Shown: positions 2,090 to 36,963 of the stretch, piece after piece
How the letters are laid out: each line of letters opens with the position of its first letter
Position numbering within the stretch: position 1 is the first letter of the stretch
Assembly: GCF_000143415.4 (NCBI RefSeq)
Contig: NW_003314266.1
Coordinates: 766,463-830,462, forward strand
Origin: Selaginella moellendorffii
Lineage: Eukaryota > Plantae > Lycopodiophyta
Length of the DNA stretch: 64,000 bases
Reading direction: 5' to 3'
Notes under the pieces: generated by a model
Seen by the model: only the letters and a program-made list of their open reading frames with translations
What the model was told of the DNA's origin: nothing
Database searches by the model: none
Program-made: the position numbers and the translations under genes

Positions 2090-3218
2090 TTTGTTGGGGG
2101 AAGGAGGGGCGCTTCCCCAACGCTCGCTCAAACATGAGAAATGATTCACTGCTCTCCACCAAAATGCCCCCCCTTGCCCTTGTGAGGCAAGGGTTTTATA
2201 CAAGGAAGATGGGGAATATTCTGAGGACCAGAATATTCCTGTAAGCGACTAAATTTTCCATTATACTTTAGTCACTTAACCACACCTCCGACCACTTCGA
2301 GGAGTCTCACTCACCACCTCCATAAGTCCTATTTTGGACTTGGGCTTGCTAGCCCCGAGAATGGCATCTCCGCCACTCAACCTTTGCACTTGGTCCAAGT
2401 GCTCCACGTTTCCGATCCCATGACTGACACCCCAAGGTACCACCGACACATCAGCCCGTTATGCTAAGGCCATGCCCATTCACCTTGGTCACACCGGTGG
2501 TCTAACACCACCTACACCACAGCCCTATCTCTCAAAGACTGGGCCATCCGTCCATGAGGGATCATCCCCGATCCACTCCTTAGCATCCTTAGGATGCCCA
2601 CAAACATGGGGAATAGCCTTCCCCAATATCCCCTTTCCGGTCCCTACCAAGTCCCTTTCTGGCCATGGCCGTGTTTGCCAACACTGCCACTGGATCAAGG
2701 CCCACAGGCCCGACCACTAAGTCCCACGGTCCTCTGGGACTTCCTCACCACACGACTGTATCCTGAGTCACTACACCAGAGGACTACTCCTCTGCCTTTC
2801 CACAGTCTGGGCCTTCGAGACAACCTTTCGGAACACCGTGGCCTTACGCAAGCCTCGGGGATACTCTCCCCACCTTCTGCCTTTGGGTGCTCTAGCCATG
2901 GGCTTAGAGCGAGGTTCCGTTGAGCCATGCCTGGTATCCAAGTAGGTAGTGCCACCCACACTTGGACTGGGAGCATCGGCCAGTCGATCTCCCGGGGGAA
3001 CTAGAGCCGGCTCTTGAACACTTCACCAAGCTACCCCGCTTGTCGGTCCATATTCACTTTAGTCTTGGACTTCCCAGTGGATCACCCAACATTGGGTAGG
3101 GCCTTCCTGGGCCAAACTGGCCTTCCTGGGGCCAAACTGGCCCTTCCTGGCCAAACTGGCTCCACTGGGCTCCAACCCCCACACTCTCCCTACTATACTT
3201 TTGGAACCCCCCGCAGCC

Positions 3219-4706: not shown

Positions 4707-7700
4707 CTTGTATTAGTATTCGGACTCAGACTCGGGCTCGAACTCGGACTCGGACCCGGTCTTGGTCCCGGTTTCGGACTCGGACTCGATCTCGGTCTCG
4801 GTTCCATCTCGAACTCCATCTCGGACTCCATCTCGGGTCCATCTCGGACTCCATCTCGGGTCCATCTCAGACTCCATCTCGGATCCATCTCGGACTCCAT
4901 CTCGGACTCCATCTCGGGTCCATCTCGGACTCCATCTCAAACTCCATCTCGGGTCCATCTCGGACTCCATCTCGGGTCCATCTCGGACTCCATCTCGGGT
5001 CCATCTCGGACTCCATCTCGGGTCCATCTCGGACTCCATCTCGGACTCCATCTCGGGTCCATCTCGAACTCCGTCTCAGACTCTGTCTCAGACTCCATCT
5101 CAGACTCCATCTCGGGTCCATCTCAGACTCCATCTCGGGTCCATCTCGGACTCCTCCACGTGTCATGTGTTGGTCCTTTTTGGGTCCCTTTTTGGAGCCT
5201 CGCTTATTGCTCGCTTCATGCTCATTCCTCGAGCACTTCGTTAGGAGTTCCACTCCCACTCTCGACCTTTTCAAGTCGGAGCTTTTTAGTCCAAATGTGT
5301 TACGCTCGTTTGGTTTTCGCTTTGGCCACCACCACATGGCACCATTCCGGCTCCACTTTGGGGCCTAGGGATTTTGTGTCTCACAACTCCACCACCCATA
5401 GACGAAGTTCGATGTCCTCATTGAACGGTAAACCCTCTTATAAAGTAACACCCGCATGTATTACCAGTTCCATCCTTGGCACTCAGCCAATATTTGTCTA
5501 TGGTTTGACACCAAAGGCTCACCATGCCTTGTCTATCCTCTAAGGAGCATAGTCTCTCCAACACAGAGACTCATTCGGCCACCTGGGGTAGTTTGCTCCC
5601 TTTTATTGGTTCAGTTCTCACTAAACCTGTTAAAGACATCGTCTCTAACTCAAGTCCACTACTCGTTCTCGAGTAATCTCAGATTCTATCGACATAACCT
5701 TTGCACTTTGGAACGTTTACTTTTGACTTCTTGAAGTCAATTTCCTAGGTGTCTCCGACACCTTGCATTGCACATATTGTGCAAGTCCACTTCCCTATCC
5801 TAGGAAGTTCTCTACTTGAGGGCACCATCATCCTCTTTTCTATTTTGTGCCACTCTTGGCACTACGTTCCAATTATCATTATTTGTGCTAGGGCTGTCCA
5901 CAGCCCTATCCTTTGGCTACTTTGCCGCTCCTCACTTGGAGCTTTTACTTTGCTAAATTGGAGCACTTGGGAATCTATTCTTGGAAGTCCACTTTCTTTC
6001 CCGCAATTCGTTAGCATCAAACACATTAGTGTTCTTTGGCTAACTTTGCCATTTGGATTCCCCCCATTAAATTCCATGGCCCAAACTTGGCCACTAGTCT
6101 TTTGCTCCTATCCATTGATTGTTATATCAAGCAACACAGGATCACTACCTCCCTCCTTGAGGTATTCTTTTGGTTCCATGGCAAAGCTCCACTTTGCCAA
6201 GTCTAGAGGGTGCTCACCCCTAGTAGGTCTTTTTAGCATTTTCTGCTATGGGCCCCTTCCACAGCCCAACATTGTGACCTTCCCATGGGTCTCTCCTAGA
6301 GACTACTTTGAACTCACAATACCATTGTATTGTCGTAGTTCATTTCCTTAGGTGTCCTTCCCATTTGGTCCCCTTGACCAAGCCACACCATTATCAATAG
6401 TTCAAATCAACTCTTTGAACTAGGAACCTTGTTCCTTAACCTCACAAGGACCTCGTCCTTGTTTTGGCCATAAGATCACCTAGTGATTTAACCTTGGCAC
6501 CTTAACAGGTTTGCCAATAGGTGCTAAGTCTCCTAGACCTTTAAGTTGTTGACCATGACCCCGGGGGCATCCCCCACACTTGGTGGTGCACCCAAGCTAG
6601 CCCTTCCAGTTAAGGGTCCATAGCAACTGAGACTGGGTGTCCCCATCTCATTCACCACGTCCTTGGTGCCACTTGCACCAATGTGTTCAAGTTAGATATG
6701 CCGAGCCACACTAAGCAATCTAACTGTGCAACACGACTCTGGGGCATCCCCCGCTTGGCGGTGTGCCCAAGCCAATCTCCTCATTGAGAGTCCATGACCA
6801 CCGAAATATGAATGTCCTCATATTCCAAACCATCACCACGCCCTAGTGATTTGGGACTCGAACCCAAGCACTAGAGGGTCGGGACTCGAACCCAACCTCC
6901 GTATATACATCTACGGAAGGCATCATCCAAGATGCCTAGCGTGACTCCCCACGCCGGTGCACCAACTTATACTTGAAACACGCTATAGATCACAGCTTAG
7001 GAACCTAATTCCTCCGCACTACCAAGTCCTCTCACTTGACAAGTCTGTGATCATGCATGGACTCCTCCATGCTTAGCCCCATGGCCCACCCTTTTTGAAG
7101 TTATCACCTTCAACTAGGGTTTTTGTTCCCCCGACTTGCCAATCTCGCTTGGCAAGTCCTCCGACCACTGTAACATGGTTCCTGTATAAGCGTGAAAGTC
7201 CTTGACCATTGACTTTCGTTCAAAACCCTCTCTTTGAACACTCGGGAACTACTTCCCTAACCTTGATAGCCTTGCCTCATGGCAAGCTTCAAGACCACGC
7301 TTCTGCTGCGCCACCTTGATTTCGCGTGTTCTATGAACCATTTACACTTGGCCTTTCTAGGTACTAAGCTACCTAGAATCGTCTTTGGGAACCTTGAAGG
7401 AATTTTGTCCCTTAGCTTGCTAAGGCCTCCCTTTTCGCAAGCTTTATAGTTGCTATATAGTCTAACATGTACAATTCCATATTTTAGACTCCCCATGGCA
7501 TCACGGTTGCTAGCAACAACATCCTCGAGCACCCTCTTGATTCTCCACTCCCAACTTACATAACCACTATTAAATATACCCTTCGATTTCTATAATTCAG
7601 TTCCATCCCAATACTACTTGCCTTTTGGCCCCATATGTTTCCTTTGGTTATTCTCCTCTAGACTAGGAGGATAGCTTTGCATATTTTACTATGCCTTGGC

Positions 7701-9440
7701 AAATATTCTTAGGGATGAACCTATCCGATAGCCTAGGGAATGGTTCCTCAATTTTGGGCACACTCACTTTATAATCCCACACATTGGAATTAACGTTGTT
7801 GCCTATGGGCCTTTACATGCCCATCACTAGCCTTGCCAAAATTTCATTTTTGGCTTTGTCCAATTCGGGTAGACAGTCTTCTCCTGTCTCCACAACCTTG
7901 GACATTTGGATAGCACCTACTATCCATCATTCGCTAGGGACTTAGTCCCTTGGGCCTTATCTATTGCCCTTGCGACACAAAACACCACCTCCTGGTGTTC
8001 TAGAGTGTTTGGGTGTCCCAATGATGGCCTCCTGACAATAAGCATTCCCGTTTACGACATTGATTTACTATATCGCAACATAAGCAATTTATCCCCCGTA
8101 AAGGTATATCTAACTTCCTTATGCCATTAAGAAGTCTTGGGTAGCTACCTTCTACCCATTTAACCAATTATCTTGCCCCTTTTGCTTAGTTGCCCCATAG
8201 TTGTCAAGTCCTACAACTCATTGCTTGGTGCTTCCACACCTCCATCATTATTTGGGTCACCACACTCCAACCGCATGCCTTCCAGCTTAGGCCATGCCAT
8301 TCCCACTTCCGTTGGGATTCCCTTGGCAAAGGGTTCTTATGAACCCACCAATATAACCTCAAGGTATCACACCTTAGCACATTTAGTGTCTCCACACCAT
8401 CAGCCCCACGAGCCTACCCTTATGACACTACTTATTAGTGTCTAGGTCTTTGCCAAGACCAATATAGTTGTTCCTCATGCTAACTATCCGTTAGCACCGC
8501 ACCATAGTGTTTACACCCAACTTTGGGCCAAAGTTGCTTTCTTCTGGGAACATCTTTCCCACAACTTTAGTATGGCACATTCTGCCATCAATGAGATACC
8601 TACTGTTCTCATACTTGGATCTTATGATCCTCCCCATACCTCATGGGGCACCATACACCTCGGTCCAAATGCTCCAACCAATCCCTTAGGACCATTCCCT
8701 GACTCCGCTTGAGTCATCCAACATTTTGGACTTTGCTAATCCAACAACCTGCAAGGTCTCAGTCTTAGAGGTGCCAACTCACTGAAATACAACTTCTTGT
8801 ATTCATGTCCTACTCACAAGGACAATCTTTGCAAGTGTTACTCTGACACTTGATAATTTTCTTGGGGCTAAACTTTGCCCCTTATGACTACTTGTCCATG
8901 TGATGAGAATAGCAACTCATCTTTAAGTACACCCCCAACTCCTTGGGTTGTTCCAGCATTTATTAGAGGTAGCCTCGGCTACCATTTCAAGGACTGGTGT
9001 CCTCTTCTGTATTTGACCTCCCACGGTCAACAATTCCGGTCTCAAATTTATGAGTACCAGCTTCAACCATATAAGGGTAATCTTGTGACTCCTTTATTGT
9101 TTTGGAGTCTGCATCTTTCCCGTGATCCCAACTATAGTTGTTTACCACAACTACATTAGCTCGTTTGCTGTGTCAAATGCTCATCTGGATCACATCCTCA
9201 GCTCTCTGAGGAAACCCTTATACTGTTCCCAAAATCCCAAAGTCGTTCCCTTACTGGCCCTTTTTCCATCCACCATATCGTACACAAGTTCATGCATGAA
9301 CTTGAGTGGAGAGCCATGTCCTTTCGACATGCTACTCCTCGAGGATAGGTCCATATCTAGGACCTTCCGATTCCAATACAAGCGGTGATATACTTGGCCA
9401 CCAATAAGAGTTGGACTAAGGAACAGCTCCGATACCAAGT

Positions 9441-11158
9441 TGTAAGCGACTAAATTTTCCATTATACTTTAGTCATTTAACCACACCTCTGACCACTTCG
9501 AGGAGTCTCACTCACCACCTCCATAAGTCCTATTTTGGACTTGGGCTTGCTAGCCCCGAGAATGGCATCTCCACCACTCAACCTTTGCACTTGGTCCAAG
9601 TGCTCCACGTGTCCGATCCCATGACTGACACCCCAAGGTACCACCGAAACATCAGCCCGTTACGCTAAGGCCATGCCCATTCACCTTGGTCATACCGGTG
9701 GTCTAACACCACCTACACCACAGCCCTATCTCTCAAAGACTGGGCCATCCGTCCATGAAGGATCATCCCCGATCCACTCCTTAGCATCCTTAGGATGCCC
9801 ACAGACATGGGGAATAACCTTCCCCAATATCCCCTTTCCGGTCCCTACCAAGTCCCTTTCTGGCCATGGCCGTGTTTGCCAACACTGCCACTGGATCAAG
9901 GCCCATAGGCCCAACCACTAAGTCCCACGGTCCTCTGGGACTTCCTCACCACACGACTGTATCCTGAGTCACTACACTAGAGGACTACTCCTCTGCCTTT
10001 CCACAGTCTGGGCCTTCGGGACAACCTTTTGGAACATTGTGGCCTTACGCAAGCCTCGGGGGTACTCTCCCCACCTTCCGCCTTTGGGTGCTCTAGCCAT
10101 GGGCTTAGAGCGAGGTTCCGTTGAGCCATGCCTGGTATCCAAGTAGGTAGTGCCACCCACACTTGGACTGGGAGCATCGGCCAGTCGATCTCCCGGGGGA
10201 ACTAGAGCCGGCTCTTGAACACTTCACCAAGCTACCCCGCTTGTCGGTCCGTATTCACTTTAGTCTTGGACTTCCCAGTGGATCACCCAACACTGGGTAT
10301 GGCCTTCCTGGGCCAAACTGGCCTTCCCGGGGCCAAACTGGCCCTTCCTGGCCAAACTGGCTCCACTGGGCTCCAACCCCCACACTCTCCCTACTATACT
10401 TTTGGAACCCCCCGCAGCCCCCCCCCCTGGAGGACGATCGCTTTGGGCTTTCACCCAACTGCCTGTATTAGTATTCGGACTCGGTCTCGGTCCCGATTTC
10501 GGACTCGGACTCGATCTCGGTCTCGGTTCCATCTCGGACTCCATCTCGGACTCCATCTCGGGTCCATCTCGGACTCCATCTCGGACTCCATCTCGGACTC
10601 CATCTCGGACTCCATCTCGGGTCCATCTCGGACTCCATCTCGGGTCCATCTCGAACTCCATCTCGGATCCATCTCGGACTCCATCTCGGACTCCATCTCG
10701 GGTCCATCTCGGACTCCATCTCGGGTCCATCTCGGACTCCATCTCGGACTCCATCTCAGGTCCATCTTGGACTCCGTCTCGGACTCCATCTCGGACTCCA
10801 TCTCAGGTCCATCTCGGGTCCATCTCGGACTCCATCTCGGGTCCATCTCGGACTCCATCTCGGGTCCATCTCGGACTCCATCTCGGGTCCATCTCGGGAC
10901 TCCATCTCGGACTCTATCTCAGACTCCTCCACATGTCATGTGTTAGTCCTTTTTGGGTCCCTTTTTGGAGCCTCGCTTATTGCTCACTTCGTGCTCGTTC
11001 CTCGAGCACTTCGTTAGGAGTTCCACTCCCACTCTCGACCTTTTCAAGTCGGAGCTTTTTAGTCCAAACGTGTTACGCTCGTTTGGTTTTCGCTTCGGCC
11101 ACCACCACATGGCACCATTCCGGCTCCACTTTGGGGCCTAGGGATTTTGTGTCTCACA
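9441..11158 (-). repeat. 5' LTR of the family B element (~1.7 kb)
   Basis: Near-identical to 2240-3218 plus 4707-5385; TG..CA ends; PBS adjacent. Confidence 0.92.
10476..10928. repeat. Minisatellite within family B LTRs (CCATCTCGGACT / CCATCTCGGGT 11-12-mers plus CTCGGA-type 6-mers); other copies at ~3400-3710, ~4715-5155 and decayed at ~40826-41070
   Basis: Tandem units are directly visible. They generate the many SISD/PSRT/RWSP ORFs in the track. Confidence 0.95.
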
Positions 11159-11202
11159 ATTCCCTCTCTCTCTCTCACTCTCTCGGTGACCACGCCCTAA
11201 CA

Positions 11203-13882
11203 GCACCGGTTCTCTTTGTTATGAAAAAGGATGGAACCATGAGGATGTGTATTGACTATCGAGCACTCAACAAGATCACGGTTAAGAACAGTTATCCTTT
11301 GCCTCGCATTGATGACTTGTTTGACCAACTCTTAAAGGCTAAGTATTTTACGCGACTTGATTTGCAGTCCAAATATCATCAGATACGGGTGGCGGATCAG
11401 GATGTGGAGAAGATAGCCTTTAAGACTCGATACGGATCTTATAAGTTCCTTGTCATGCCGTTCGGGTTATGCAATGCTCCAGCAACGTTTAGCACTATAA
11501 TGGATAGAATATTCGGAGATTATCTAGACACATTTGTTGTCCTATATATCGATGATGTTCTAGTCTTCAGCAAAACGTTGGAGGATCATTTAAAACACTT
11601 GGAGCTGGTGTTTCAGAAGTTGCACGAACACAAACTGTATGCTAAGGAAAGTAAATGCGCTTTTGGACAATTGCGCGTAAACTTTCTCAAACATATAGTT
11701 GGTGGTGGCGTGATTGAGGTTGATCCAAAGAAGGTGGAAGCGGTGAAGTCTTGGGAAGTCCTGACCACTGTATCATATGTTCGTTCCTTTCTCAGTTTGG
11801 CGGGATACTATTGCAAGTTTGTCCTTAATTTTGCAAGAATTGCTCTTCCGTTGACTGAGTTGACGAAGAGTAGTATTCTATTTCATTGGACACCAGCTTG
11901 CCAGCGTGCTTTTGTATGGTTGAAGGAGATCTTGACTACGGTTCTTGTTCTTAGGATCCCAGATCTTGATAAACCCTTCGAAGTGCATTGTGATGCATCT
12001 GGATATGCTATTAGTACCGTGTTGCAGCAAGATTGTGACAAAGCGGTTGGTGTTACGCTAAGGCGACATGGTTGTCCCATTGCGTTCTATTCCAAGAAAT
12101 TGGATGAAACCCAACAAAGATGGCCAACGCATGAGAAAGAGATGTTTGCTATAGTGTCGGCCCTGGAACACTGGAGACACTACTTGGGTGGACATACCAA
12201 GGTTTATACGGATAGTAACACACTGAGCTACTTTGCTATGCAGCCTAAGCTTACGCCAAAGCAGGCTCATTGGCAAGAGAAGCTTGCTAGATATGATATT
12301 GAAATCATATATAAACCTGGTAAAGACAATATTGTTCCGGATGTGTTGAGTCGTCAAGTTCAATTCCGGGCAATATCGGCAATTAGTTCAAACTGGTTGG
12401 AGGATGTTCAGGCTTCATATGGAAGTGATCTATTGGCGAAGGCAATCTTATGCCATGCAGGGTTGTTGAAGCAAAGCCCTGGTAGTGAAGCAGCAAAAGT
12501 TGCTAGTCACACTAATGCAAAGCTTCACTTCTCAGTTCGAGATGGGCTTATATTCTATAAGCAAGAAAAATTGTATCTTCCCTCTAAGGATCTGCAATAG
12601 TTGTTTCTGCAGGAACATCATAATGTTCTGGCAGCAGGACATAGTGGGAAGCAAAAGACTCTGGCTTCATTGAAAAAGGGATTTTTCTGGTCTAGTATGG
12701 AAGGTGATGTAACAGATTATATCCGTTCCTGCCCTATATGCCAGCAATGTAAGTGCAGAACTGAGAAGCAAGCTGGAAAGTTGCAATGCATTTGAGCACC
12801 GGCATGGCCATTTCAAAGTGTGACACTTGATTTCGTCACTTGCTTGCCGAAGTCTAAGGGTTATAATACTTTGATGGTGGTTGTGGATCGGTTATCGAAG
12901 ATTGCACACTTCATTCCAACTGTGGGTATAGTGAATGCGAAACAAGCAGAAAAGCTCTTTTTCCATGAAGTAGTGTGAGTTCGTGGTCTTCCCGAAGAGA
13001 TGATCTTGGATAGGGATTCGAGGTTTACGGGAAAGTTTGGGGGCACTCTGTTCCAGTTGTTTGGTACCAAGTTAAAGTTTAGTATGGCTTATCATCCTCA
13101 AATTGATGGGCAGACCGAACGCGTGAATGCTCAAGTTGAGGATTATCTGCGGTACTATGTCGCGGCGGACCAACGCGACTGGGTTGAGCATTTAGACAGC
13201 AGAAATCTGTTATAACAACACATTTCACAGTGTTATAGGCTGTTCTCCATGGGAGATGCTGCAAGGGAATGCTCGTGGGGTTCCTCAACAGATCGTTGTA
13301 CTGAAACTAATGACCGAAGTGTTGGTCCCAGCCATTGAAACTTATGCGGAGCAGCTATGCCAAGGTTGGTCTAAAGCTATTGAGGCGATGGGCAAAGCTC
13401 AGAATAGGTATCGACGTGATAAGGATCAGCATCATCAGGATGTATCCTATCAAGTGGGAGATCATGTGTGGCTATCTTCCTGGAACTTGAACATTAAGGG
13501 TTCTTTATCTCGGAAGCTCTTACTGAGATATGTTGGACCCTATCGGGTGTTGAAATGAATTGGTGATATATCCTATCGGTTGGATCTTCCTGTGGAGATG
13601 TCCCATATTCATAATGTATTTCATGCCAATCTCTTGGCTCCTTACACTATGGATGTTGCTCAACATGGGATGGTTCGTCCGCCACCAGATGTTGTGGACG
13701 GTGAACCAGAATATGAAGTTGAAGCTCTCTTGGATGCTCGATCTTGAAAACAGGCTCGTGCGAAAGAATATTTAGTTAAGTGGAAAGGTTACCCATCTTG
13801 TGAATCAACTTGGGAGCCTCTTAGGAATCTTACACATGCTCGTGAGCTTGTCACGGGGTATGAGAATCGTAATAAACATTAG
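11203..13882 (+). pseudogene. pol: Ty3/gypsy chromovirus pol (RT, RNase H, integrase, chromodomain), 5' part missing from this window, with stops and frameshifts
   Basis: RT: APVLFVMKKDG..CIDYRALNK..MPFGLCNAPATF..YIDD. RNase H: CDASGY..DVLSR. Zn finger: HH..CPICQQC. Integrase core: DFVT..VVVDRLSK, DRDSRF, YHPQIDGQTERVN. GPY motif: YVGPYRV. Chromodomain: [26 protein letters not shown]. Stop at 13880-13882. Confidence 0.95.
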
Positions 13883-13972
13883 CTTTTGTAAACCTTGTAA
13901 TAAATCTTGCAAACTAATAAAGTAATATATTTCTATAAATCAAAGTGTTGTTTCTTTTGTTCATTCGTACTT

Positions 13973-14470
13973 GGGTCAGTTTTGGCAGGTTGACTTTGGC
14001 ACTTCGGTGCATGGGTTCAATCCATAACCATGGGGATAACTATTATGGACTGATCACAAGTCCTCGCCTCTCTCTCGATGCGTAACTTTTGAAAAGGGGC
14101 GTGGTCGTGTAAACAACTTAATCTGCCAGTTTATAATAGTTGTCTAAATCTTTCCGATGGGGTTGATTTCTTGCTCAGGGGAAGCTGGGCCTCTGGCCTT
14201 TTCCCTATGTCCCTACAGGCAGGGATGTATCATTCCTTTGTAAGCCTAGTGGTACTCGAAGCAGCAAGGGTGGCTAACTCCGTTAGTCATTTCTTTGTCG
14301 GTGACGGTCGGAGGGTGTCTGAGTCTTAACGTCTTTAGACGTAGAAGAGAGGTCGTTCCATATATCATTTAAGTCGGTGTGTTTCCCACATAGTGTGCTT
14401 TTCGTTAACTTTCGGAGTTGTTTCCTTGACGGTTTGCTAGACTCGGGTATACATTGACGAGGACGTCAAT
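13973..14470 (+). ncRNA. Candidate structured RNA in the retrotransposon 3' UTR (copy 1)
   Basis: Run of hairpins, homologous to 27429-27933 with compensatory substitutions (see findings). Confidence 0.6.
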
Positions 14471-14490
14471 CTTCCCCAAGGTGGGGAGAG

Positions 14491-15215
14491 TATCGCAAAT
14501 GTGACTTCAAGTATCGAAAGATACTTGTCAACCAGTCCTTACGGACACTCTTTCCTTATTGTTATGATGGCAGGAGATTGGTATAGTTGGATCCCTTTAG
14601 TAGCCCCTCTTGTGTTAGTGGAGTTAACTGGGCATTTCGAGTGTACTTAAACCGGACAAGCATAAGGACGGAATTCTTATATGCTATTAGCTAAGCATAC
14701 TTAGCCCGGTAAAGAGTTCCTGTCTCGTTATGCCTTGCACTTGCTAGTGACAAGAACCCTCGCATATTGAGACTAGTCCCTCAATATCACTGGATGATAG
14801 CTTACCATATCTGCCAAACACCCTCGCTATCACGCCCTTTGTGTTGGTCTCATTTCAGTCCCAAATGCTATTTAAGACATATAGACATATGGGGGGTTCT
14901 AAATGTATAGTATGGATAGTGGTTGGAATGCATGTCCGACCGCCTGAGACATTAGTTTGGCTCCCGCTAGGCTGTGTCGCTCTTTGTTCTGCGTCTGGCT
15001 TAAGTCTAAGCCCAAGCTCCACGCTGCTCTAGTTGGTGGGGTACCCTCCTCCTCGCGTTAGGCCACCGGTATACCAAAATTGTGCCAGACTCTGTCTAAC
15101 ACCATTTTGCGTGCAGGTGCTGGATACGGGGAGCTGGTGCTCATGGGATTGTACCGGACCCTCGTTTCGTAGCGCAACGGGCTTGGAGTTCAGCTCCAAA
15201 TTCAGGTGCGCTACA
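14491..15215 (+). repeat. 3' LTR of the chromovirus (family C-related, shorter variant)
   Basis: Follows PPT AAGGTGGGGAGAG (14478-14490). Starts TATCGCAAATGTGACTTC (compare TGTCGCAAATGTGACTTC at 27953) and ends GCGCTACA. Confidence 0.8.
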
Positions 15216-16899: not shown

Positions 16900-17925
16900 T
16901 GAACATATCAAGATATTTTAGTGTTTAGGCATGGATATATTTTTTGTAGTAATGTGGGAGTTTTGTGTTGATACACATGGTACCTCATTAGTGGATGAGT
17001 TTGACATGGCTGCAGCTCAAGTCCATGTTCTTCAACAAGGTATTGATCTACCAAAGTTCTACACTATATGTGGCATTTCCCATAAACTCACATCACAATG
17101 TTAAAATGTATTGCTCCTCTACCACAAACTTTTGAGCTTTCTTACTATGCGGAGGCACTTTTATAGGAATAGAAGCTAAACTTTGGCCTCCTTTAACCTA
17201 TGTGCTCTGAGACCGTGAAGATCGTTGGCTTGTGAAAGGAGCAAATAAGTCTATTTACAAGTATATCACACAGTTTCTTGCTTACTAGGAGTGCTTGGCA
17301 CACCAGGTGGTTATAGAGAAACACTATGGAGTGATAGCCTTTGTTTTAGGACTCAAAGACAACTTGTAGGCCAAAATATAAAAGCAATGGTTTAGCACTT
17401 ACTTCTGTCATTCATTATACTTGTGGCATTAACTGAGTTCCTCGAACTTGCATTCTAGAGGAGAAACAAATGAATACTATGGATGTCACATTGGCAGAAA
17501 TGTAGTGGTATCACATTCTTCTATAAAAACACATCAATAGCAGCAAGGTAAGATTTTAAAGGAGTTGGAACACCTTAGAACACAAGTAGTTGATTGTAGA
17601 AGTTGCCATATGGGGCACTGATGTTATTTGAGAAAAAGAAAAATGGCTTTATATGTATGTGCATAAATTATTGATTGCTCAACAAGCATACAAAGAAGAA
17701 CAAGTATCTTTTACCAAGGATTGAGGACCTGTTCAATAGGTTGGGAAAGGGGAAATACTTCTTGAGAATTGATGTAAGGTTAGGATACTACTAAATCAAA
17801 ATAGCAAAGGAAGATGTCGAGAAAACAACTTGTCAAATGAGGTATAGAAACTTTGAGTTTCTAATGATGCCTTTTGGGCTGTGCAATATGCTGGCAACAG
17901 TCTTAGCGCTAATGAACCACATTTT
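16900..17925 (+). pseudogene. Decayed Ty3/gypsy gag-RT remnant
   Basis: ~17690-17900 reads [54 protein letters not shown]. The left boundary is approximate. Confidence 0.75.
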
Positions 17926-18052
17926 TATACCTTATCTACTATTACATCTATTGCAACCATTATAGATCCACTCATGATAGGTCATGTTGTTGGCAATTAC
18001 ATTCAAAGTTGCATCCACAACTTTAGGAAGTGTTGCAATGACCTTTAACTGA

Positions 18053-19165
18053 TGTAGCGTATGTGGTTTTTACCCTTTATCCTAATAGGATAACCACAAA
18101 GCGGAACCTAAACCCTCTATGTGCCATGTGTCATATACCACATGTCCAAAGGACAGTGGTGTGGAACCCAAATTTCAAGGCCTTAGGCCACTAAATAAAG
18201 AAACGGTGCCAAACTCCCAAGTATGGAGCCAAGAAGCAATGGCACTAGAGCACAAAATAACTCCCGAACATATAACCCAAGGAGCAAAGGGACAGGAGTA
18301 TGGAGCAACTTGGATCAATCCTAAAACAACTAGCATTTCAATGCTAGGACTAACATGCAAAACGAAGCCAAACGGAGTTTGGCACTATTTCAATATATCG
18401 ATGGCCTAACATGAGGATATGGGTACTTCACCAGCTAACATAGTGTGGAACTTGGGTTTAGACCCAAGCCAAACATAGAACAAGGACAAACACGCAAGTG
18501 GGAGCTAGACTATGCCTCAAGTTGGTCGGCTATGCCCAACTTACCCACTTTCCCTACTATACATTTGGAACCTCCTATAGCCCCCCCCTTGAGGAACACA
18601 CACTTTGGGCTTTCACCCCAAACCTCCCTTAATATCAAAAGTTAGTCTCTAGGATAAGCTCGAAACTTACTAAATATGGAATGTCCCTAAATTGTGAATT
18701 TAGACATGGGACAAACACCATTGTGTTCAAAACAATCTCTACATTGCATAAATATGCCAAATTAGCAAATCTATATAGTTTCCATAAATAACATTTGGGA
18801 CCGGAATGAGACTAACACAAAGGGCATAATAGCGAGGGTGTTTGGTAGACATGGTAAGCTATCATTTAGCGAATATTGAGGGACCAAGCTTAATATCGCA
18901 AAGGTTCCCAACACTAGCAAGTGCAAGTCAACGAATGAGTTTCTCTAACCAAGTCAAGTATGCTTGACTAATAGTACTTAGGAATTCCGTCTTTATGCTC
19001 ATCTGGCCAAGTGCACACGTGAAAACTAGTTTCTCAACTAGCTTAGGCAGAGACTGATAACAAGTCCAGCAATACCGACCTCCTGCTGTCATAGTAGTAA
19101 AGAAAGAATATCCGAAAGGACTAGCCGACAAGTAACTTTTGATACCCGAAGTCACATTCATGACA
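18053..19165 (-). mobile_element. Solo LTR, family C, with TSD ACTGA
   Basis: Diverged reverse complement of LTR 21808-22940. TG..CA ends. ACTGA at 18048-18052 and 19166-19170. Confidence 0.9.
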
Positions 19166-19220: not shown

Positions 19221-21711
19221 TGTAGGTCAAGGGGAATATATTAAGGCATGTTAGGGTAAACTTACCCTAGGGTTCACAATGGAGCAGTAGCATGGGGGTG
19301 GTTGGGAGCATAGTCTAGGAAGACTAGACATTTTATATTTTAATGCTAGGTCTTAACATTGGTATTAGAGAAGTTGGTTGTAATGGCCGACCAAGATGAA
19401 TGTTGGAATCTTATTGTTGATAGTGGTGCTAATGATGGTGTTAATGGAGGGTTTGGACTATTCAAAATGTTGTTCATAAGCTAAAAGCCTTTAATTAAAA
19501 TCAGCAAGAGATCCAAAACAAAATCTATGGCATAATAAATACCATGCGTAAGCGTGTTGAAGCACTTAAGGCTAGACATGATGGCACTCCATATAAGACT
19601 TCCTTGGTGAATTGACTCAAGATTTCAACTTTTTCTGATGGTGATAGTGTGGATAACTTATGTTGTAAATAAGAAACCACTAATGTTTACCATAAATGAG
19701 TTTAAGGTTACTTTTTGTTTATATTTTGCCCCTTACTATAACATAAAGAATTCTTGCATAAAACTTCAATATTTTTGGTAAGGGAAAATAACACTTGAAG
19801 ATTATATTGAGAAGCTTACTTACTTGATTAACCGTATTTTAACAAAGAATCCAAATCAAAATAAATCCCACTTTATTGATGGCCTTTATAGTGATAGCAT
19901 GTGGCAACACTTGTGTCATTCTCAACCTAAAAAGAGTTTGGAAGAGCTCTTTGATGTAGTTTATCGACTTAACAATAACAAACACAAGTCTTGCAAGCAT
20001 TCGAAAAGTCCTTCTGTTGAGAATCATAGTGATGATCCCTATGAACACAAGGATGGGAACAAATATCATAAGATGAAGTCTGTACTTTAGATGTAAAGAA
20101 GCAGAAGTTCTTTGTGAAGAATTATAACTAAGATTGTCATCATTGCGATGAATTTGGATACTATAAGGTTGATTATCCACAATTGAAGCACAAACAATAT
20201 AGCAAAAGGAATGGCCAATCTTTTAATGATGGTACGTCAGATATTAAAAAGTTATAAAATTTATAACATGGGGAGGATGAGGAAGACCATTCTAGTCGAA
20301 GGAAGTGGCTTTCAATCGTTGCTCATCAACTCAACTATATGTAGAACAAGATAAAGCTCAAGGACACTCATACATTAGCTTTAATGCTGGAGGGCATGTT
20401 CCATAGAGGACCAATATGGATTTTATTAGATATTAGGAGTGATGACAACTTTGTTTTGGCAAAGTTTGTTAAAGAACATGGCCTGGTGACATGAAGAGTT
20501 CTTCTATACACAATGGAAAGTATAATTACCCTACTTAGCATTTTGATGTTTATGTAGAGGGGTTGGAAGTGTTGGTTGGCAAATCCACACTTGTAAAGAC
20601 TTTTTATTTCATGAATATTTATCGTGTGGATCTCATTCTTGGGATGTCATGGTTAGCAAAAGTGGATTTAAAGATAAAATGGAATATTAAATATATTTCA
20701 CTAAAGTATAGTGATGCCAAAGATGTAATTTAGAGAGGGAATTTAGCCTCTAGTTGTTATACTCTTCACCACATCTTTCAAGTGGGTTTGTCATAATGGA
20801 TAAAAACTTTTAAGTTACTTGTTGTGTATTCATGACTTGGGGGATTAAACCATGTATGGGGAAGAGGTAGTAGTGCAGGATATACTCAAAGAGTTTTTCA
20901 ATACTATGTAGAGGAGCAAGAAGTTCAATGACAAATCAAAGAATTACTTGATTTGAATTCATTTAGCCAAATAATTCTCTATTTGGTGCCTTGGTCTTGC
21001 TTATAAGAAAGAAGGATAGTTCAATATGGATGTATATCATAAGGTATTACTATGCCTTAAACAAGAAGTTGATGCTGCATGAAGATTTAGACAAACTTGG
21101 TAAAGCATAAGTGTTTACCAAGATTGATTTGAGGAGTGGATATCATCATATTGCAATATTAAAGTTAAAATCATGGAGTTTAGAAAGTTTTCCATTGAGC
21201 ATTATCAATTCTAGAAGAATAAAGTAGGTGATTTCATCTTTGTGCAAATGATTTTTCTGTCATGTGAGCAGCAGAACACCTTAGTGCCTTTGTGGAATGG
21301 GAAGAGTGATAAACTTTTCATAAATATGCTCGTCCACTGGAGTGCATTAGTAAGGCAATTTATTGCTAGGGTGAAAATTCATCTAATATTTTATATCAAC
21401 CAATTGAAAGGTGTACTTTCTTAGAGTGAAAGGACCAATGCTTCCTTGATATATACAATTGTGGAAGATGGACCAAAAGCTTGAGTAAGTTTCCTCAAGA
21501 ATGATGATCACAACTTCTCTTTAGGACAAAAACTTTGTTGGGGGGGAGGGGGGAAGAATTAACTCAAGGGTAAAGAATTTAACTTACCCTAAGACTCACA
21601 ATAGAGTGGGGAGCTTTTGAGGTAGCTTGGGGGTGGTTAGGAACCTCAAAAAGAGGTGTAGTATAATTTAAGAAGATTAAACCTTTTGTTTTCTAGCATC
21701 GGGTCCTAACA
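19221..21711 (+). mobile_element. Old, internally deleted Ty3/gypsy element with short LTRs
   Basis: Diverged LTRs end GGTCTTAACA (19358) and GGTCCTAACA (21711). Decayed PBS TGGTATTAGAG. G-rich PPT near 21540. RT remnants LVLLIRKKD..YALNK..FTKIDLRSGYHHI. The start coordinate is approximate. Confidence 0.7.
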
Positions 21712-21807: not shown

Positions 21808-24800
21808 TGTCGCGAATGTGATTTCGGGTATCGAAAGTTACCTGTCGACCAGTCCTTACGGACACTCTTACCTTACTGCCACGATGGCAGGAGGTCGGTA
21901 TTGCTGGACCCTTTATCAGTCCCTCTTGTGCTAGTGGAGTTAACTGGGCATTTCGAGTGTACTTAGACCGGACGAGCATAAGGACGGAATTCCTACGTGT
22001 TATTAGCTAAGTATACTTAGCCCGGTAAGGAGTTCCCGTCTCATTATGTCTTGCACTAGCTAGTGACAAGAACCCTCGCGTATTGAGATTAGTCCCTCAA
22101 TATCGCTACATGATAGCTTACCGTGTCTGCCAAACACCCTCGCTATCATGCCCTTAGCGTTAATCTCAATTCGGTCCCAAATGTTATTTATGGAAAGTGT
22201 CCAAATTTGCTCATTTGGCATATCTACGGAATGTAGAGATTGGCCTGAACACAATGGTGTTTGTCCCGTGTCCAAATTCGCATTCTAGCGCCATTCCATA
22301 TTTAGTAAGTTTCGAGCTTGTCCCAAAGACTAACTCCTAATACTAAGGGAGGCTTGGGGTGAAAGCCCAAAGTGTGTGTTCCTCAAGGGGGGGGGGCTGT
22401 AGGGGGTTCCAAATGTATAGTAGGGATAGTGGGTAGGTCGGGCATGGCCGACCAACCTGAAGCATAGTCTAGCTTCTGCTTGCGTGCCTGTCCTTGTTCT
22501 GCATCCGGCTTGGGTCTAAGCCCAAGTTCCATTCCATGCTAGTTGGTGGAGTACCCATATCCTCACGTTAGGCCACCGGTATGCCGAAATAGCACCAGAC
22601 TCCGTTTGGCTCCGTTTTGTGTGCTGGTCCTAGCATTGGGATGCTGGTTACTCTAGGACTGTTCCAAGTCGCTCCGGGCTCCTGTCCCTTCGCTCCTTAG
22701 GCTTTATGCTCAGGAGTTGCTCTGTGGTTCTGTTCCATCACTCCTCGGCTCCACGCTTGGGAGTTTGGCACCGTTCCTTCGTTCAGTGGCCCAAGGCCCT
22801 GAACCTCGGGTTCCTATGGACACGTGGCATGTGACACGTGGCATCTGTCATGTGGCACAAAGAGGGTTTAGGTTCCGCTTTGTGGTGTTATCCTATGGTA
22901 GATCACCATAGGATAAAGGGTCAAAACCACGTGCACTACATTTGGTATCAGAGCATGAGTCTCGGCGAGTACTATCTAATGAGATTGGGCAACTAGTCTC
23001 GTTGCATACGCAGAGATGAAAATGATGATCCAAGTGGGTACACGTTTGGGTGCAAAGGCTTCTCAATCGTTCCTCGGGTTTGGATTTGGTTACCTTTTGT
23101 ACCGTAATAATGTGAGCATGCTCTTGGGCTCACAAGAGGGATTGAGTTGTTCCGTTCGCACGAGTTTGAGCTTGGACTCATGAGTGAGGCACGTTAGCAA
23201 CTCAAGGTTACACTTTAAGTTGGCAAGATTAATGTTAGCCTATCAGTGGTTCCATAAGTTGTTCCAGTGGTTCCATGAATTGTTCCATGTACCATGGGTG
23301 AAAGCAAACTTTCCCTGGGTTTGCTATGAGTGGCAAATAGGCTGGTCCGTAGCTGTTTAGCATGGCACTAGTAAATCCTTCTTAGGCATGATTACAAGTG
23401 GATCAAACAAGACTATAGGGATGAGTCTATTGATTCAAGTAATCATTGCTGTGCTCTCTCATAAACTTTTCTTGGATTGGACTGAAGGCAGTGCAAAAGC
23501 AAGCTTGAGGTTTAGTTAAAGATGAAACCGAAAAGAGAGTCATCAGGGACGAAGGATCAAATACGTAAATCATTTTCTCTTTTTAGGAGAGATGATTTGC
23601 AACGAGGTGTTAACTCATTGCTTGTGTTCACCTTATGCAATCAAGTGTCCCTCCCTTGATGCATATTGGAAATGATGGTCTTACAAGTGGTGAGTTATGG
23701 GATGGATAGCAGTGAAGCGCTATACCATTTTGTCTAGGCTTGTTATTGGAAGACTTGGGTTGCAATGCTCAATTCTTTTCCGGGGAACCTTGCTATTGCT
23801 CCTTGAGTAGCTTAGTGTTGGATTAGTTTTGAGTTTGGTCGGAAAGAGAGTGGCATGAGCTTGTCCGTATTGTGAACAAAAGTTAGTGGTGCTGAGTGTT
23901 GTAAATCTCTATCGGTGGAGTGTGGCATTTATGTTGCATTTTGTCAAATCAAGTTTGCACTTGATACTCACATAAACCTTTGAAGTAATGATATAGACAT
24001 TGCTCGTGGTGTTGCTCAATTGATGATCAAATCATTGTGATACTTATATCATATCCATGTGATAGTGAGCAATGTGTTTACAAAGTTGCTTGGGTAAACG
24101 ATGATCAACCCCAAAGTGGTTGATAGTGAAGCTAGTCTACTTGTATGAAGTAGCATTATAGTAGCTTTGACTAGATTCTTAATAGTGATCCATTATGCTA
24201 AGCTTAAGTTGGTTCTTTGCTCCTTGAGGGTTTGCCCATTAGGTGTTAGAAAGGGTTATAGCAATCATTTGCTTTAACTCGTCGATTGTTCCGTTAGCAC
24301 TTGGAGTAGATTATTGGATGGAGAAGGTGTGCAGTTGAGGCATTGACATCATTAGCACTTGTGTTAGTGGAGATGACATTGTTATGTTAAGTGATGAGGA
24401 ATTTTCCTTAGAGCTTGATTTTCCATGTCATTTTTCTTGTTAGTGTTTTAGCTTCACATTAGATCTTGAGAATGATTGAAGAAGAGTGTTAGTGCAATAT
24501 GGATATTTGAAGATATGGTCTTCATGATCAAGCCTTGGATGTTCACTTTGCATTTGCGGATGTCGGTGTTGGATGTCGGAAGTATGGGCAAAAAGATGTT
24601 CGAGGCTTAAGCATACTATGGGTCATGAGAATTGGTGTCAAGGTGAACCTATGTGAAGTTGTTGGTAGGAGGAAGTTGGTTGAGTCTTAAGAGTTTGCAT
24701 TCTTGGACTGAGAGTCATTCTTTCTCTGGGATGGAAAATTTTTCCACAAATTTTCTTAGACTTTTCCAATGGCTGATCTGTTGGTCACTTTGTCCGAAAA

Positions 24801-27800
24801 CCATTCCGTTTTCATGAGCCAATACAAACTAGTGAAAGGGTTAAAGTTGACTTCTGTTAGCTTAAACCTTAGTAGATAGTTTGTATAATGCGACCCGAAA
24901 GGGATGCTGACTTTTGGGGCTAAGGCAATTGAGTTGGATAGAGTCTGGAGTTGGTGTAGAAAAGTGGCCGTTGCGCTTTTCTAATAAAGGTGACCTTTGT
25001 GCCTTTCTTCTATAGCATTGTGCTTGGTGGCAGGTTGCACCTTGCATTTTGTTAGACTCTATGAGAGTAGTGAGCTCTCACTGACCTTGATTTGGTCTTA
25101 GTGGCCCTGCACCTTGGCTAAGGATGGTGATGTCCAACTTAGTTGTTTGAGTTTAAGATGTTGGTACCCATACTATAGCTTTGTCCAAGTGGAGGTTGTG
25201 TATCGATATGAATCCTTCTCATGGTCTTCACTTTAGTTTCAACTAAGTGTTGGCCATGTATAGCTAGCCTCTTCAAAGCATGCTCAGAGCTATTGACTAG
25301 ATGTGTTGGTGAGCTTATCACGGTTGAGCTGGATTCGAGTGGTCATTTAGTTTGTGCTTATCTATGAACTTTTATCTCATGCTTGGGGTATTATGTTCAT
25401 GTCAGACAAGTATATGACTCGATGACGTGAGCTTAGTGTTTGGGTCTTGTGAAAGGCAAGTTGGGAAGTGATTGTTGGTTGCTTTGCAACTAATGATTAC
25501 TTGTAGACTTTGTCAAGGACTTTTGACACTTGTTTCACTCGATGAACATTTTAGCAATGGTGGGCTTGCTCTACTGGATGGTGTTGTAGAGGATCGTGTC
25601 GTTAGACTTACATGGGTTTTCCATGTTGGCATGTCAACTTTACCTTTGTTGATATCATTTGGTTGCATTTAGTTCAAGGTATTGGATTTCATTGAGTCTT
25701 GGATGTGGTGATTCACTCCTTGAGGAAGTGTTATCTGTGACTGAGTATTGTTGAGAGATTGGTCTCGGATACTAAATAAAGTATCTCCGACTTTGGTTAG
25801 CTTGGTTTCTAGAAAGTTTTGAGTGGTGATTCACTCTTGCTTTCTACTAGCTTTGTTCTGATGTTGATGGCATTGAAGTGATGCCGAAATGAGATGTCTC
25901 TCTTTAGGATTGATATTGAGTTTCATTAGTCTTAATGAAAATAGTGTTGATGATTTGGCTTTAGCTTTATGTTGTTCGCATTCATACATTTGCTAGTTAG
26001 CAACTGCATACGTTCAAATGAACTGAGTGGCAAGTTTGAGTTAGTTGTGTTCTAGACAAGATTATTTAGTACAAGTTAAGCTTTGGCTTTTCCTTGAAAA
26101 GTGATTCAGTCGTGGACTATGCTAACTCTACAAGTGGAAGAGTTAGATCGATATTGGAATGTTTGAATCCTTATTGGATTTGAATGGGAATATATCAATC
26201 ATTGATGATTCTTCTTGTGCTTGTTATGAAGTGAGTTACGTCTTGCTATAGATGGATTCATAGAGGATCATTTAGTGATCATTTGTTGAACATAGTTTCA
26301 TTACGCTTGGTTTTTGGATTGATGCAGACATGTTCTTTATTAACTTTGGCATTATGAAGTTTAGCTTATAGATGTGTTAAGGAGAATATTGTGGGTTATA
26401 CCATGCTTTCTTCTTTGGTATTGAAGTTAGTTCATGCGAGACTCGTGATCATTATTAGGCAAGACTTAGTTATAGACTTCTTCAAGCTTGTGGTTCTTTG
26501 AGTTTTCATGCTCATTGTTCCATTTGTTAGGAGTTGTTGGGGGAAGGCATTTTGGCTCATTAGCTTCGATGTTGACGTTAGTATTTGCATCTGGCAATCA
26601 TTGGTGATGATTAATTATCATCTAAGATAGTTGATTATCCTTGTCAAGGGTTTTGCTTGGTTGTTGTTGATATAGAATGATTCGCTACTCTTTGAGATAG
26701 TGGATTCTTTCTTAGACGATGATTATGCATCTCTCTATTGATAGGATGATTGGCGATCTTTTATGGTGGTTAGTTGTTCTCTTTGATGGCTTGTGGCTTT
26801 TTGCAATAGCTGTGATTTTTTGCTCCCAGCTTTGGCTTTCGCAATACCACATGTTCTTTGTGATTTACTCTGGATTGGTCTTTTGGGTTTGAGACATCAG
26901 TAGGATGTTGCTGACACTTGCTTAGGCAACTTAAGTTCCTTGGTGTTGTTGGCTGGGATCTATTTGGATTAGCTAGTGTGATAGTTGGCATAAACGAGTG
27001 TTTGTTAGTCTTGCCACATTCATTCTATTCTGTTGATTGTTGCTCGAGTTAGTTCTGATAGATTGGAATGTTATTTCCTTCGGATGATACATTCGTAAGC
27101 AATGTGCTTGTCAGTTGATGATACTTTGTGTTCTTTGAGTTATCTTTAGTAAGTTGTTTGGCATACTATCTGCCATCTTCAGTAGTTACGTTTCATCATT
27201 AAGTTTCCTTAATGATATACTTGCTATTGAATTTTGTTGGATGGTGATTCCTATGTTTACCAATTATGATGATCTTGGTCATTCCTATACTATACTCCTA
27301 GTTTATCGGATGATAACTTATTTAGAATACTTTTGTGTTCTAATCTAAGGTGTATTCACTGATAATTAAGTCTCTAAGATATCATTGTCTATAACTTTGA
27401 TATTGTCCATTTATTGATCTTTGAGTTTGGGCCAGTATAGGCAGACTGGCTTCGGCACTTCGTGTGCATGGTGAAATCTCTAATCATGGGGTAACTACTG
27501 TCGACTGGTCACATCACCCGCCTCTTTGTCGATGTTCCTTATTCCGTTGAAAAGGCGTGACCGTGTAAACAACTCTAACTGCCTGTTTACAGTAGTCTAT
27601 CTAAACCTTACTGACGGGTTTGGTTTCTTTGCTCATGAGGGTTGGGGCCTCTGGCTTCTCTCTCTATGTCCTTGCGGGCAGGGGCGTATCACACTTTTGT
27701 AAGCTGGGTGACTCCCAGAGCAGCAAGGGTGGCTGACTCCGTTGGTCATTTCCTTGTCGGCGACGGCCAGAAGATGTATGAGCTGGTAGCACATCCGCGT

Positions 27801-29025
27801 TAGACAAAGAGGTTGCCCCCTAACTCATTTAAGTTGGTGCATTTCTCACATAGTGTGAGTACCGTGAACTTTTTCTGGAGTTTTTTCCTTGGCAGTATCC
27901 TAGACTCGAGTATGCATCGACGAGGACATCGATCTTCCCTAGGGGGGGAGAGTGTCGCAAATGTGACTTCAGGTATCGAAAGTTACCTGTCGACCAGTCC
28001 TTACAGACACTCTTACCTTACTGCCACGATGGCAGGAGGTTAGTATTGCTGGACCCTTATCAGTCCCTCTTGTGCTAGTGGAGTTAACTGGGCATTTCGA
28101 GTGTACTTAGACCGGACGAGCATAAGGACGGAATTCCTACGTGTTATTAGCTAAGCATACTTAGCCCGGTAAGGAGTTCCCGTCTCGTTATGTCTTGCAC
28201 TGGCTAGTGACAAGAACCCTCGCGTATTGAGATTAGTCCCTCAATATCGCTACATGATAGCTTACCGTGTCTGCCAAACACCCTCGCTATCATGCCCTTA
28301 GCGTTAGTCTCAATTCGGTCCCAAATGCTATTTATGGAAAGTGTCCAAATTTGCTCATTTGGCATATCTACAGAATGTAGAGATTGGCCTGAACACAATG
28401 GTGTTTGTCCCGTGTCCAAATTCGCATTCTAGCACCATTCCATATTTAGTAAGTTTCAAGCTTATCCCAGAGACTAACTAAGGGAGGCTTGGGGTGAAAG
28501 CCCAAAGCGTGTGTTCCTCAAGGGGGGGGGGGGGGCTGTAGGGGGTTCCAAATGTATAGTAGGGATAGTGGGTAGGTCGGGCATGGCTGACCAACCTGAG
28601 GCATAGTCTAGCTCCTGCTTGCGTGCCTGTCCTTGTTCTGCATCCGGCTTGGGTCTAAGCCCAAGTTCCATTCCATGCTAGTTGGTGGAGTACCCATATC
28701 CTCACGTTAGGCCACCGGTATGCCGAAATAGCACCAGACTCCGTTTGGCTCCGTTTTGTGTGCTGGTCCTAGCATTGGGATGCTGGTTACTCTAGGACTG
28801 TTCCAAGTCGCTCCGGGCTCCTGTCCCTTCGCTCCTTAGGCTTTATGCTCAGGAGTTGCTCCGTGGTTCGGTTCCATCACTCCTCGGCTCCACGCTTGGG
28901 AGTTTGGCACCGTTCCTTCGTTCAGTGGCCCAAGGCCCTGAACCTCGGGTTCCTATGGACACGTGGCATGTGACACGTGGCATCTGTCACGTGGCACAAA
29001 GAGGGTTTAGGTAGTGTTATCCTAT
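21808..29025 (+). mobile_element. Non-autonomous LTR element (LARD-like, family C); 3' LTR runs into the assembly gap
   Basis: 5' LTR 21808-22940. Perfect Met PBS TGGTATCAGAGC at 22943-22954. PPT AGGGGGGGAGAG at 27941-27952. Near-identical 3' LTR from 27953. The ~5-kb T/G-rich internal region has no recognisable coding domains. Confidence 0.9.
27429..27933 (+). ncRNA. Candidate structured RNA upstream of the PPT (copy 2)
   Basis: Homologous to 13973-14470 with stem-preserving changes. Confidence 0.6.
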
Positions 29026-29125
29026 NNNNNNNNNNNNNNNNNNNNNNNNNNNNNNNNNNNNNNNNNNNNNNNNNNNNNNNNNNNNNNNNNNNNNNNNNNN
29101 NNNNNNNNNNNNNNNNNNNNNNNNN
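29026..29125. other. Assembly gap (100 N)
   Basis: Run of N. Confidence 1.
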
Positions 29126-33790: not shown

Positions 33791-34007
33791 TGTCTCTGGA
33801 GTGTTGCATTGGGGAATAATTGTTCGTGCATTTTGTTTCCTTATACATTCCATACTTTTAGTGGTTGTTCATATTTCGATTTCGTTACACCTTGTGTGCA
33901 CAGACTTGAAATACACAGGAACGCAAACTGGCGCAGTAATCCATGCCCTCTCTCCATTTGGCGGTCTTGTCAAAGAACAAAGTGGCCTCTAACTGGCTGT
34001 GGCAAGG

Positions 34008-36922: not shown

Positions 36923-36963
36923 TCTTTAACTGGCTGGACTAAGTAGAAACAATCATTTAAAGA

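Follow-up and report, generated by a model that had tools for sequence, protein, structure and literature searches.

A probable conserved RNA fold upstream of the polypurine tract, shared by a Selaginella chromovirus and a non-coding LTR element

Among described systems, the closest to the RNA element considered here is the MusD MTE, which is reported to span ~400 nt, to adjoin the 3' LTR and to require a contact between a hairpin loop and an internal loop (L3/IL8) for export; in the published accounts, export is lost when this contact is broken and restored when it is re-paired (PMC4588558, PMC3362945). Plants are reported to use TREX, not the NXF1 route of the MTE, and intronless RNA to be exportable via the cap-binding complex; the same source, a 2025 review, states that the export of plant LTR-retrotransposon RNA has not been directly studied and that the presence of export motifs is unclear (PMC12786077). 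LARDs, for their part, have been reported to specify conserved RNA structures (PMC7215508, PMC4558846).

The 64,000-nt stretch of Selaginella moellendorffii DNA analysed here (64 kb, hereafter the window) is made up of nested LTR retroelements and contains a single gap of 100 N. Within it, a block of about 500 nt is found in both a decayed chromovirus (element A) and a non-coding LTR element (LARD B). We examine whether its fold is under selection, which parts of it recur elsewhere and what it might do.

Two elements with one block in common

The two elements comprise the following features:

11206..13882, plus strand: pol of element A (Ty3/gypsy; RT, RNase H, integrase, SH3 and chromodomain), from Pfam and translation
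13883..13972, plus strand: AT-rich spacer of element A, 69 of 90 nt A/T, with two AATAAA, from the sequence
13973..14476, plus strand: probably structured block, copy A, from 73% identity to copy B and fold-conservation tests
14478..14490, plus strand: polypurine tract (PPT) of element A, directly 5' of the LTR, from the sequence
14491..15215, plus strand: 3' LTR of element A, 80-87% alike to the LARD B LTR over its first 380 nt; end inferred from terminal TACA
21808..22940, plus strand: 5' LTR of LARD B, with a poly-G run, 1033 of 1056 positions identical to its own 3' LTR
22943..22954, plus strand: primer binding site (PBS) of LARD B, TGGTATCAGAGC, from the sequence
22955..27428, plus strand: non-coding interior of LARD B
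27429..27940, plus strand: probably structured block, copy B, from alignment to copy A; very high depth in two DNA runs
27941..27952, plus strand: PPT of LARD B, from the sequence
27953..29026, plus strand: 3' LTR of LARD B, running into the assembly gap (at 29027), from the sequence

Element A is a chromovirus, with the order RT-RNase H-integrase and a C-terminal chromodomain (Pfam matches RVT_1, RT_RNaseH, Integrase_H2C2, SH3_Tf2-1 and Chromo). It is a fragment whose 5' half, that is everything before the RT start at 11206, is absent, and the remaining pol is 5'-truncated and decayed, with several stops, one frameshift near 13210 and a terminal stop at 13880-13882. Its best named protein relatives are from S. 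moellendorffii (57% and 51% local identity). Element B, ~7.3 kb long with a 4.5-kb interior, is a LARD by structure: it has two LTRs, a PBS that we take to be of the initiator tRNA-Met type, a PPT, a length of more than 4 kb and no coding capacity. Its interior holds no ORF of 150 aa and gave no tblastn match to 294 retroelement proteins. Nor does blastn match it to the pol of copy A (19 nt at best, E 0.13), in a comparison that covers pol onward because the leader and gag region of element A are absent. The LTRs of the two elements are about 80-94% alike.

Block A starts 90 nt after the pol stop and ends before the PPT. It is identical to block B at 369 of 507 aligned positions (73%), and 89 of the 138 differences are transitions; the block is less conserved than the adjoining LTR. 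Upstream of ~13970 identity falls to 38-54% per 50 columns, an abrupt homology border that coincides with the first base pairs of hairpin H1 described below, and the spacer at 13883-13972 has no homology to LARD B. A preliminary description of this DNA had three AATAAA motifs separating the block from pol; they are found at 13871, 13899 and 13916, the first lying within the last pol codons, and copy B has none upstream of its block.

Both types are repetitive. In one DNA run, the summed contig depth is about one million for B-like sequence and one to four hundred thousand for A-like sequence, and because this depth is so high we conclude that each represents many copies. About 12% of each of three RNA runs was also compared and gave no matching read, a sample that has no bearing on expression. 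The LARD B family also left a solo LTR at ~18053-19165 with a 5-bp target duplication; neither this LTR copy nor the one at 21808 has a block upstream. Taken together, the shared LTR, PPT and block, the solo LTR with its duplication and the high depth would be compatible with mobilisation of LARD B in trans.

Other elements are nested in the window. Short RT fragments of another gypsy element (17600-17935 and 20958-21164) are split by the solo LTR, and another ~3-kb repeat occurs in three copies without a GAGGAC hairpin (33989-36928, 42875-44450 and 57509-60447), the two longest of which (33989-36928 and 57509-60447) are 85% alike. A second non-coding LTR element at 2240-11163 on the minus strand has a GGAAT target duplication, a PBS of tRNA-Met type and 4 kb of interior in which perfect hairpins abound, with many 120-nt windows below z -2; the 3' 511 nt of this interior are strongly folded (z -5.2), differ from the block and end in a GAGGAC hairpin. 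Tandem repeats of 11-12 nt occur in its LTRs, one of which contains a piece of LTR in inverted orientation (3225-4710). The two non-coding elements are unrelated, yet ~105 nt of their LTRs are 81% alike (22350-22420, and 10383-10487 on the minus strand); this stretch surrounds a poly-G run and a TATA-like motif and may be a promoter core that they have in common.

Conservation of the fold and a helix model

The two-copy alignment was folded in thirds and compared with 200 nulls each, in which substitutions were moved among columns of the same base and one real sequence was kept. Each third beat these nulls (z between -2.7 and -4.4, p ≤ 0.005). As a control, three stretches taken from the LTRs of both elements gave z -0.1 to -1.3; one of these three comes to z -2.6 when columns are simply shuffled. 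At methylated CG and CHG sites, two separate decay events can convert a G-C pair into A-T, and for this reason the nulls were repeated with both base and methylation context preserved (150 nulls). Under these, z was -2.3/-2.6 for the 5' third, -3.05/-4.65 for the central third and -3.7/-4.4 for the 3' third, with 0.0 and -0.35 for the LTR control. The plus strand, which is sense to the element RNA, folds at -30.2/-62.8/-25.5 kcal/mol, compared to -19.6/-33.3/-16.6 kcal/mol for the minus strand.

Double changes exceed the null only in the central third, where there are 10 against 5.6-5.8 in nulls (p 0.015-0.03); the 5' third shows no excess (4 against 2.8-3.6 in nulls). In helix H4 the double changes are all in CHG context, and 6 of 11 C's of copy B in that context differ in the 5' third. 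When the fold of one copy alone was used, p for double changes was about 0.02-0.07. Against shuffles, copy A alone gave z -3.05, and copy B alone folded no better (z -0.27). These tests rest on two aligned copies, A and B, and with them we consider it very probable that a selected fold exists in the block. This agrees with the earlier proposal of a large folded cis-element under selection; we place it on the sense strand, where it would have been kept through ~27% divergence of the chromovirus family and its non-coding partner.

To describe the fold, a model of 22 helices was drawn by hand with both copies in view, and is not a test by itself. Its main parts are:

13973..13996, plus strand: H1, 8 bp with one double change; the loop 13982-13988 is half of the predicted pseudoknot PK1
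13999..14031, plus strand: modelled H2 (UUCG loop in A) and H3 (7-nt T-loop-like U-N-N-A-A-U-C)
14032..14065, plus strand: candidate second pseudoknot, 14032-35 with 14062-65, 4 bp and weak, its register off by one in B
14039..14140, plus strand: modelled long arm H4-H6 with a large internal loop and an invariant GUGUAAACAAC strand
14146..14324, plus strand: modelled central multibranch domain H7-H14, closed by 14173-77/14320-24, the best-supported third
14373..14458, plus strand: modelled 3' domain, whose closing helix H16 has 10 bp in A as in B

The 119 pairs of the model comprise 91 unchanged, 15 with a one-sided change, 11 with a double change and 2 unpaired; the second pseudoknot candidate, H15 and the hairpin before the PPT stand outside this count. 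Six of the 11 double changes are G-C in B, three are G-C in A and two are transversions, and those of the central domain run in both directions. Because rival helices have similar support (13974-80/14049-55, 14066-73/14346-53 and 14108-14/14129-35), the model is not unique.

Several helices had been picked out in the preliminary description, and their motifs are where it placed them: for stem 1, GGGTCAGT at 13973 with GTTGACTT at 13989 in copy A and GGGCCAGT at 27429 with ACTGGCTT at 27445 in copy B; for stem 2, ACTATTAT at 14039 with ATAATAGT at 14133 and ACTACTGT at 27494 with ACAGTAGT at 27589, respectively. Stem 2 is H4 of the model (14039-46/14133-40, two double changes), followed inward by H5 (14052-57/14101-06). 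A 21-nt hairpin at 14270 and 27729 that had been read as compensated shows one-sided changes with wobble only, and we no longer count it as such. Likewise, the reported ATTGA/TCAAT compensation rests on position 14455, a CpG at which 87% of the depth from similar copies carries copy B's letter, and is probably decay of copy A. The GCAC-TTCG-GTGC hairpin is present in A (GCACTTCGGTGC at 13999), and copy B has a 5-nt loop instead. Of the claimed swap between two T-loop-like sequences, GTTCAATC at 14015 and GTGAAATC at 27471 are present and both copies have the U-N-N-A-A-U-C heptamer, with a weak closing stem; the tRNA-like UUCAAUC of A includes a private letter at 14017, which 84% of the depth from similar copies reads otherwise.

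The predicted pseudoknot PK1 joins the H1 loop (13982-13988) to an internal-loop strand (14123-14129) by 7 bp in both copies. Its core letters are where they had been noted, TGGCAG at 13983 with CTGCCA at 14123 in A and AGGCAG at 27439 with CTGCCT at 27579 in B, and it has one covarying pair, a U-A/A-U transversion swap. A contact of this kind arose in 6 of 4000 column shuffles (0.0015) for that loop, and about ten loops could be tried; the core base 14125 differs in 12-43% of depth. A loop-loop pseudoknot in the 5' domain is probable in this model. At the other end of the block, H16 (14373-14382/14449-14458) takes the 5' arm of the PPT hairpin, and the competition of the two predicted structures for one arm makes a two-state switch possible.

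To separate family differences from decay of one copy, contigs at least 88% alike to copy A were compared, and a site was counted if at least 25% of depth differed, which gave 28 sites in copy A. The letters that matter for stems 1 and 2 and for PK1 (13976, 13993, 14043, 14045, 14134, 14136, 13983 and 14128) are not among them, so that they look like family differences. These letters appear common to most A-like copies, as judged with a likeness filter that favours copy A's letters and with two of the eight sites near the edge of the compared stretch. For copy B, among the best 40 of 179 differences, the majority letter pairs better than B's own at four paired sites.

The GAGGAC hairpin and the search for relatives

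The last helix of the block recurs far more widely than the rest:

14453..14470, plus strand: PPT-proximal hairpin, stem-GAGGAC-stem, found across distant chromoviruses

In the window it occurs at 14453-14470, 27916-27933 and 5408-5425 (minus strand), which includes both non-coding elements, and outside the window in ten related loci (L010, L012, L017, L018, L019, L028, L034, L041, L084 and L087). In 84 loci with a chromodomain match, 16 of 19 PPT-linked GAGGAC sites have five of five flanking Watson-Crick pairs, compared to 3 among the 112 remaining GAGGAC sites; one family contributes several copies to the 19. To reduce this redundancy, 13 rows were selected, three of them from the window. 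In these rows 67 of 78 stem cells are paired, compared to 33.8 after shuffling, and some positions show four pair types. The predicted GAGGAC hairpin is thus widespread in chromoviruses, fungal-like and plant-like, with a fixed loop and a freely changing stem. In four loci (L010, L018, L041 and L084) it comes directly after the chromodomain, without the long block, and many loci that lack GAGGAC have, by eye, a hairpin in this position with a different sequence. No description of a GAGGAC-PPT hairpin was found in the open literature.

For the block as a whole, a profile HMM and two covariance models run against 87 sources (the window and 86 loci; 391,792 bases) recovered only the two training copies, the next best matches having E 0.2-0.6. 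The 86 related loci are distant, mostly 30-50% in RT, and say little about close families. Protein-based scans brought in 80 out of 560 relatives from metagenomes, together with 8 viral loci. A scan of metagenomes with the block pattern gave 0 matches, and in viral contigs 7 matches of a 17-mer, none with flanking likeness, were set aside as chance. Neither the block's sequence family nor its mapping to the pol-to-PPT region of a plant chromovirus was found in the open literature, a search that leaves subscription papers uncovered.

Known RNA classes were searched as well. Across the whole 64 kb no Rfam family reached its gathering score, in keeping with the earlier remark that the element was not recognised as a known family; a toga_FSE match on the 14270 hairpin (20 bits against a cut-off of 40) was rejected, and other weak matches stood at half their cut-off or less. 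ARAGORN called 0 tRNA genes, and the block, internal to its RNA, has no 3' CCA acceptor mimic or cloverleaf. Core motifs of hammerhead, twister and introns were absent from the block. A coding relic was also rejected, the longest stop-free stretch being 78 codons, with 8-14 stops per frame and 1-2-nt indels between copies.

Another chromovirus family, in 11 metagenome loci (L012, L015, L016, L019, L021, L023, L024, L025, L068, L074 and L086), has two PPT-plus-hairpin sites ~750 nt apart downstream of the chromodomain. In its 9 alignable loci, one stretch has a conserved fold (z -3.05), a second a weak one (z -1.9) and two have none; the stretch has no sequence likeness to the block, and a different LTR starts after it in different loci. 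Many fungal-like chromoviruses, L017 and L028 among them, have ~1 kb between chromodomain and PPT, which often opens with a TATAAAA-like motif and an ATG and suggests an extra 3' gene.

Possible functions and comparison with known systems

Going by position and analogy, the block may function in export, packaging or dimerisation. An element kept both by a coding family and by a gene-less parasite must act in cis on the full-length RNA, and this speaks against a function in translation. We tentatively favour a cis-acting transport signal that would let unspliced full-length RNA exit the nucleus and reach particles, and we put export first because the size, the place and the predicted hairpin-loop/internal-loop contact match the MusD MTE. 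Because plants have TREX and not NXF1, and export of plant LTR elements is unstudied, we propose analogy to the MTE and not membership. We hypothesize that PK1, as L3/IL8 in MusD, would compact the 5' domain so that it offers a surface to a host export adaptor or to Gag, and that LARD B would keep the block since its RNA must take the same route as its helper's. The final GAGGAC hairpin may be an older, separate part serving plus-strand priming at the PPT.

A packaging or dimerisation signal is a somewhat doubtful alternative to export. Gag would recognise the fold, and the pairing of the H1 loop with the internal loop may link two RNA molecules. The fold evidence is identical to that for export, a non-coding partner above all needs its helper's Gag, such signals are said to be conserved in structure and not sequence (PMC4558846), and Ty3 packaging reportedly depends on UTR or POL sequences; in the same source, however, mapped Ty1 packaging signals lie within the first 580 nt (PMC4974528). 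As to dimerisation, copies A and B share no palindromic hexamer for a self-complementary dimer loop, and no 10-nt complement to block B occurs in the LTR or leader of LARD B. Because the 5' half of element A is absent, a 5' signal common to both elements may also have existed.

The block could also be a stability element, guarding a transcript whose 3' UTR is long against nonsense-mediated or exonucleolytic decay, which we regard as quite unlikely. The Rous sarcoma virus RSE is a stability element of this type. A start 90 nt past the pol stop and a compact 5' end with a predicted pseudoknot would suit such a role, but LARD B has no long ORF whose stop the block could follow, and yet keeps the whole fold.

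It is likewise quite unlikely that the block was inherited passively, LARD B having taken block, PPT and LTR as one piece, with the apparent compensation produced by C>T/G>A decay and post-hoc choice of stems. The majority of transitions and the lower conservation relative to the LTR would fit this reading, and random decay probably accounts for the ATTGA/TCAAT change and the T-loop letter, both private to one copy. The rest speaks against it: the context-aware nulls are still beaten (z -2.3 to -4.65) with no such signal in the LTR control, double changes, transversions among them, are seen either way, and the homology border falls at the first H1 base pairs.

An aid to reverse transcription, in which the fold positions or exposes the PPT and H16 and the GAGGAC hairpin switch as alternative pairings, seems more improbable still. 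It draws on the hairpin before the PPT in fungal-like and plant-like chromoviruses and on the competition of H16 for the hairpin's 5' arm in both copies, but accounts only for the last 100 nt, and four loci have the hairpin without the long block. Finally, a ribozyme, tRNA mimic or captured host RNA gene is very improbable: besides the pseudoknot, the UUCG hairpin and one T-loop-like sequence, a possible GNRA loop would suit it, but with no Rfam family, ARAGORN call or core motif found the catalytic or tRNA-like identity once suggested is not supported, and cleavage at the block would part pol from the PPT.

Returning to the export signal, a bolder version of it, which we consider unlikely, would make the block one of an undescribed class of large pseudoknotted 3' elements in plant chromoviruses that serve NXF1-free transport and are stolen by parasites, with H16 hiding the 5' arm of the GAGGAC hairpin and so switching the RNA between export and reverse-transcription forms. 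Even without this extension, a delimited candidate of 500 nt, for which a tertiary contact is predicted and a compensatory pair occurs naturally, makes the question of plant export testable by a plain reporter. The block also points to what a non-coding parasite must retain to exploit its helper, and the GAGGAC-PPT hairpin offers a simple, widely conserved motif.

Both cis-elements with a fold beside the 3' LTR and LARDs with conserved RNA structure are known in kind; the block's sequence family is not. Like the MusD MTE and the mouse IAP RTE as reported, the block measures ~400-500 nt, is non-coding, lies by the 3' LTR and forms many stem-loops, and a hairpin loop paired to an internal loop and a further pseudoknot, described for those elements, are predicted here. 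These export elements differ from it in belonging to another superfamily and another kingdom, with an NXF1 route reported absent in plants; the block has no sequence likeness to any of them and matches no Rfam family. The Ty1 pseudoknot is likewise a long-range one in LTR retrotransposon RNA, reportedly needed for transposition, but lies at the 5' end and in coding sequence, whereas the block is 3', non-coding and common to a parasite (PMC4974528). Upstream of the PPT, a U-box/T-box has been reported, and a pyrimidine run likewise lies between the GAGGAC hairpin and the PPT here; the former is a T-rich sequence, the latter site is preceded by a hairpin with a fixed hexaloop (PMC10085805).

The elements themselves resemble SM1/SM2-Galahad, the Galadriel-clade elements reported from Selaginella, in the Group I chromodomain, the tRNA-Met PBS and an LTR of more than 1 kb; the poly-G run of the Galahad LTR is here seen in the partner LARD B, and the available part of that report describes no structured 3' region (PMC3350952). 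Tcn1 is reported to be mostly without a tRNA PBS (PMC6317226), and the PBS type and LTR poly-G, together with the best named matches, would suit Galahad elements better than Tcn1. Finally, LARD B is like the described LARDs (Sukkula, Dasheng/RIRE2) in being large and non-coding, with PBS and PPT and with LTR sequence shared with a coding family. The parts of PMC7215508 and PMC4558846 available to us give no mapping of the kind made here, in which the structured part of LARD B is traced to the pol-to-PPT region of its helper and resolved into predicted helices and a pseudoknot.
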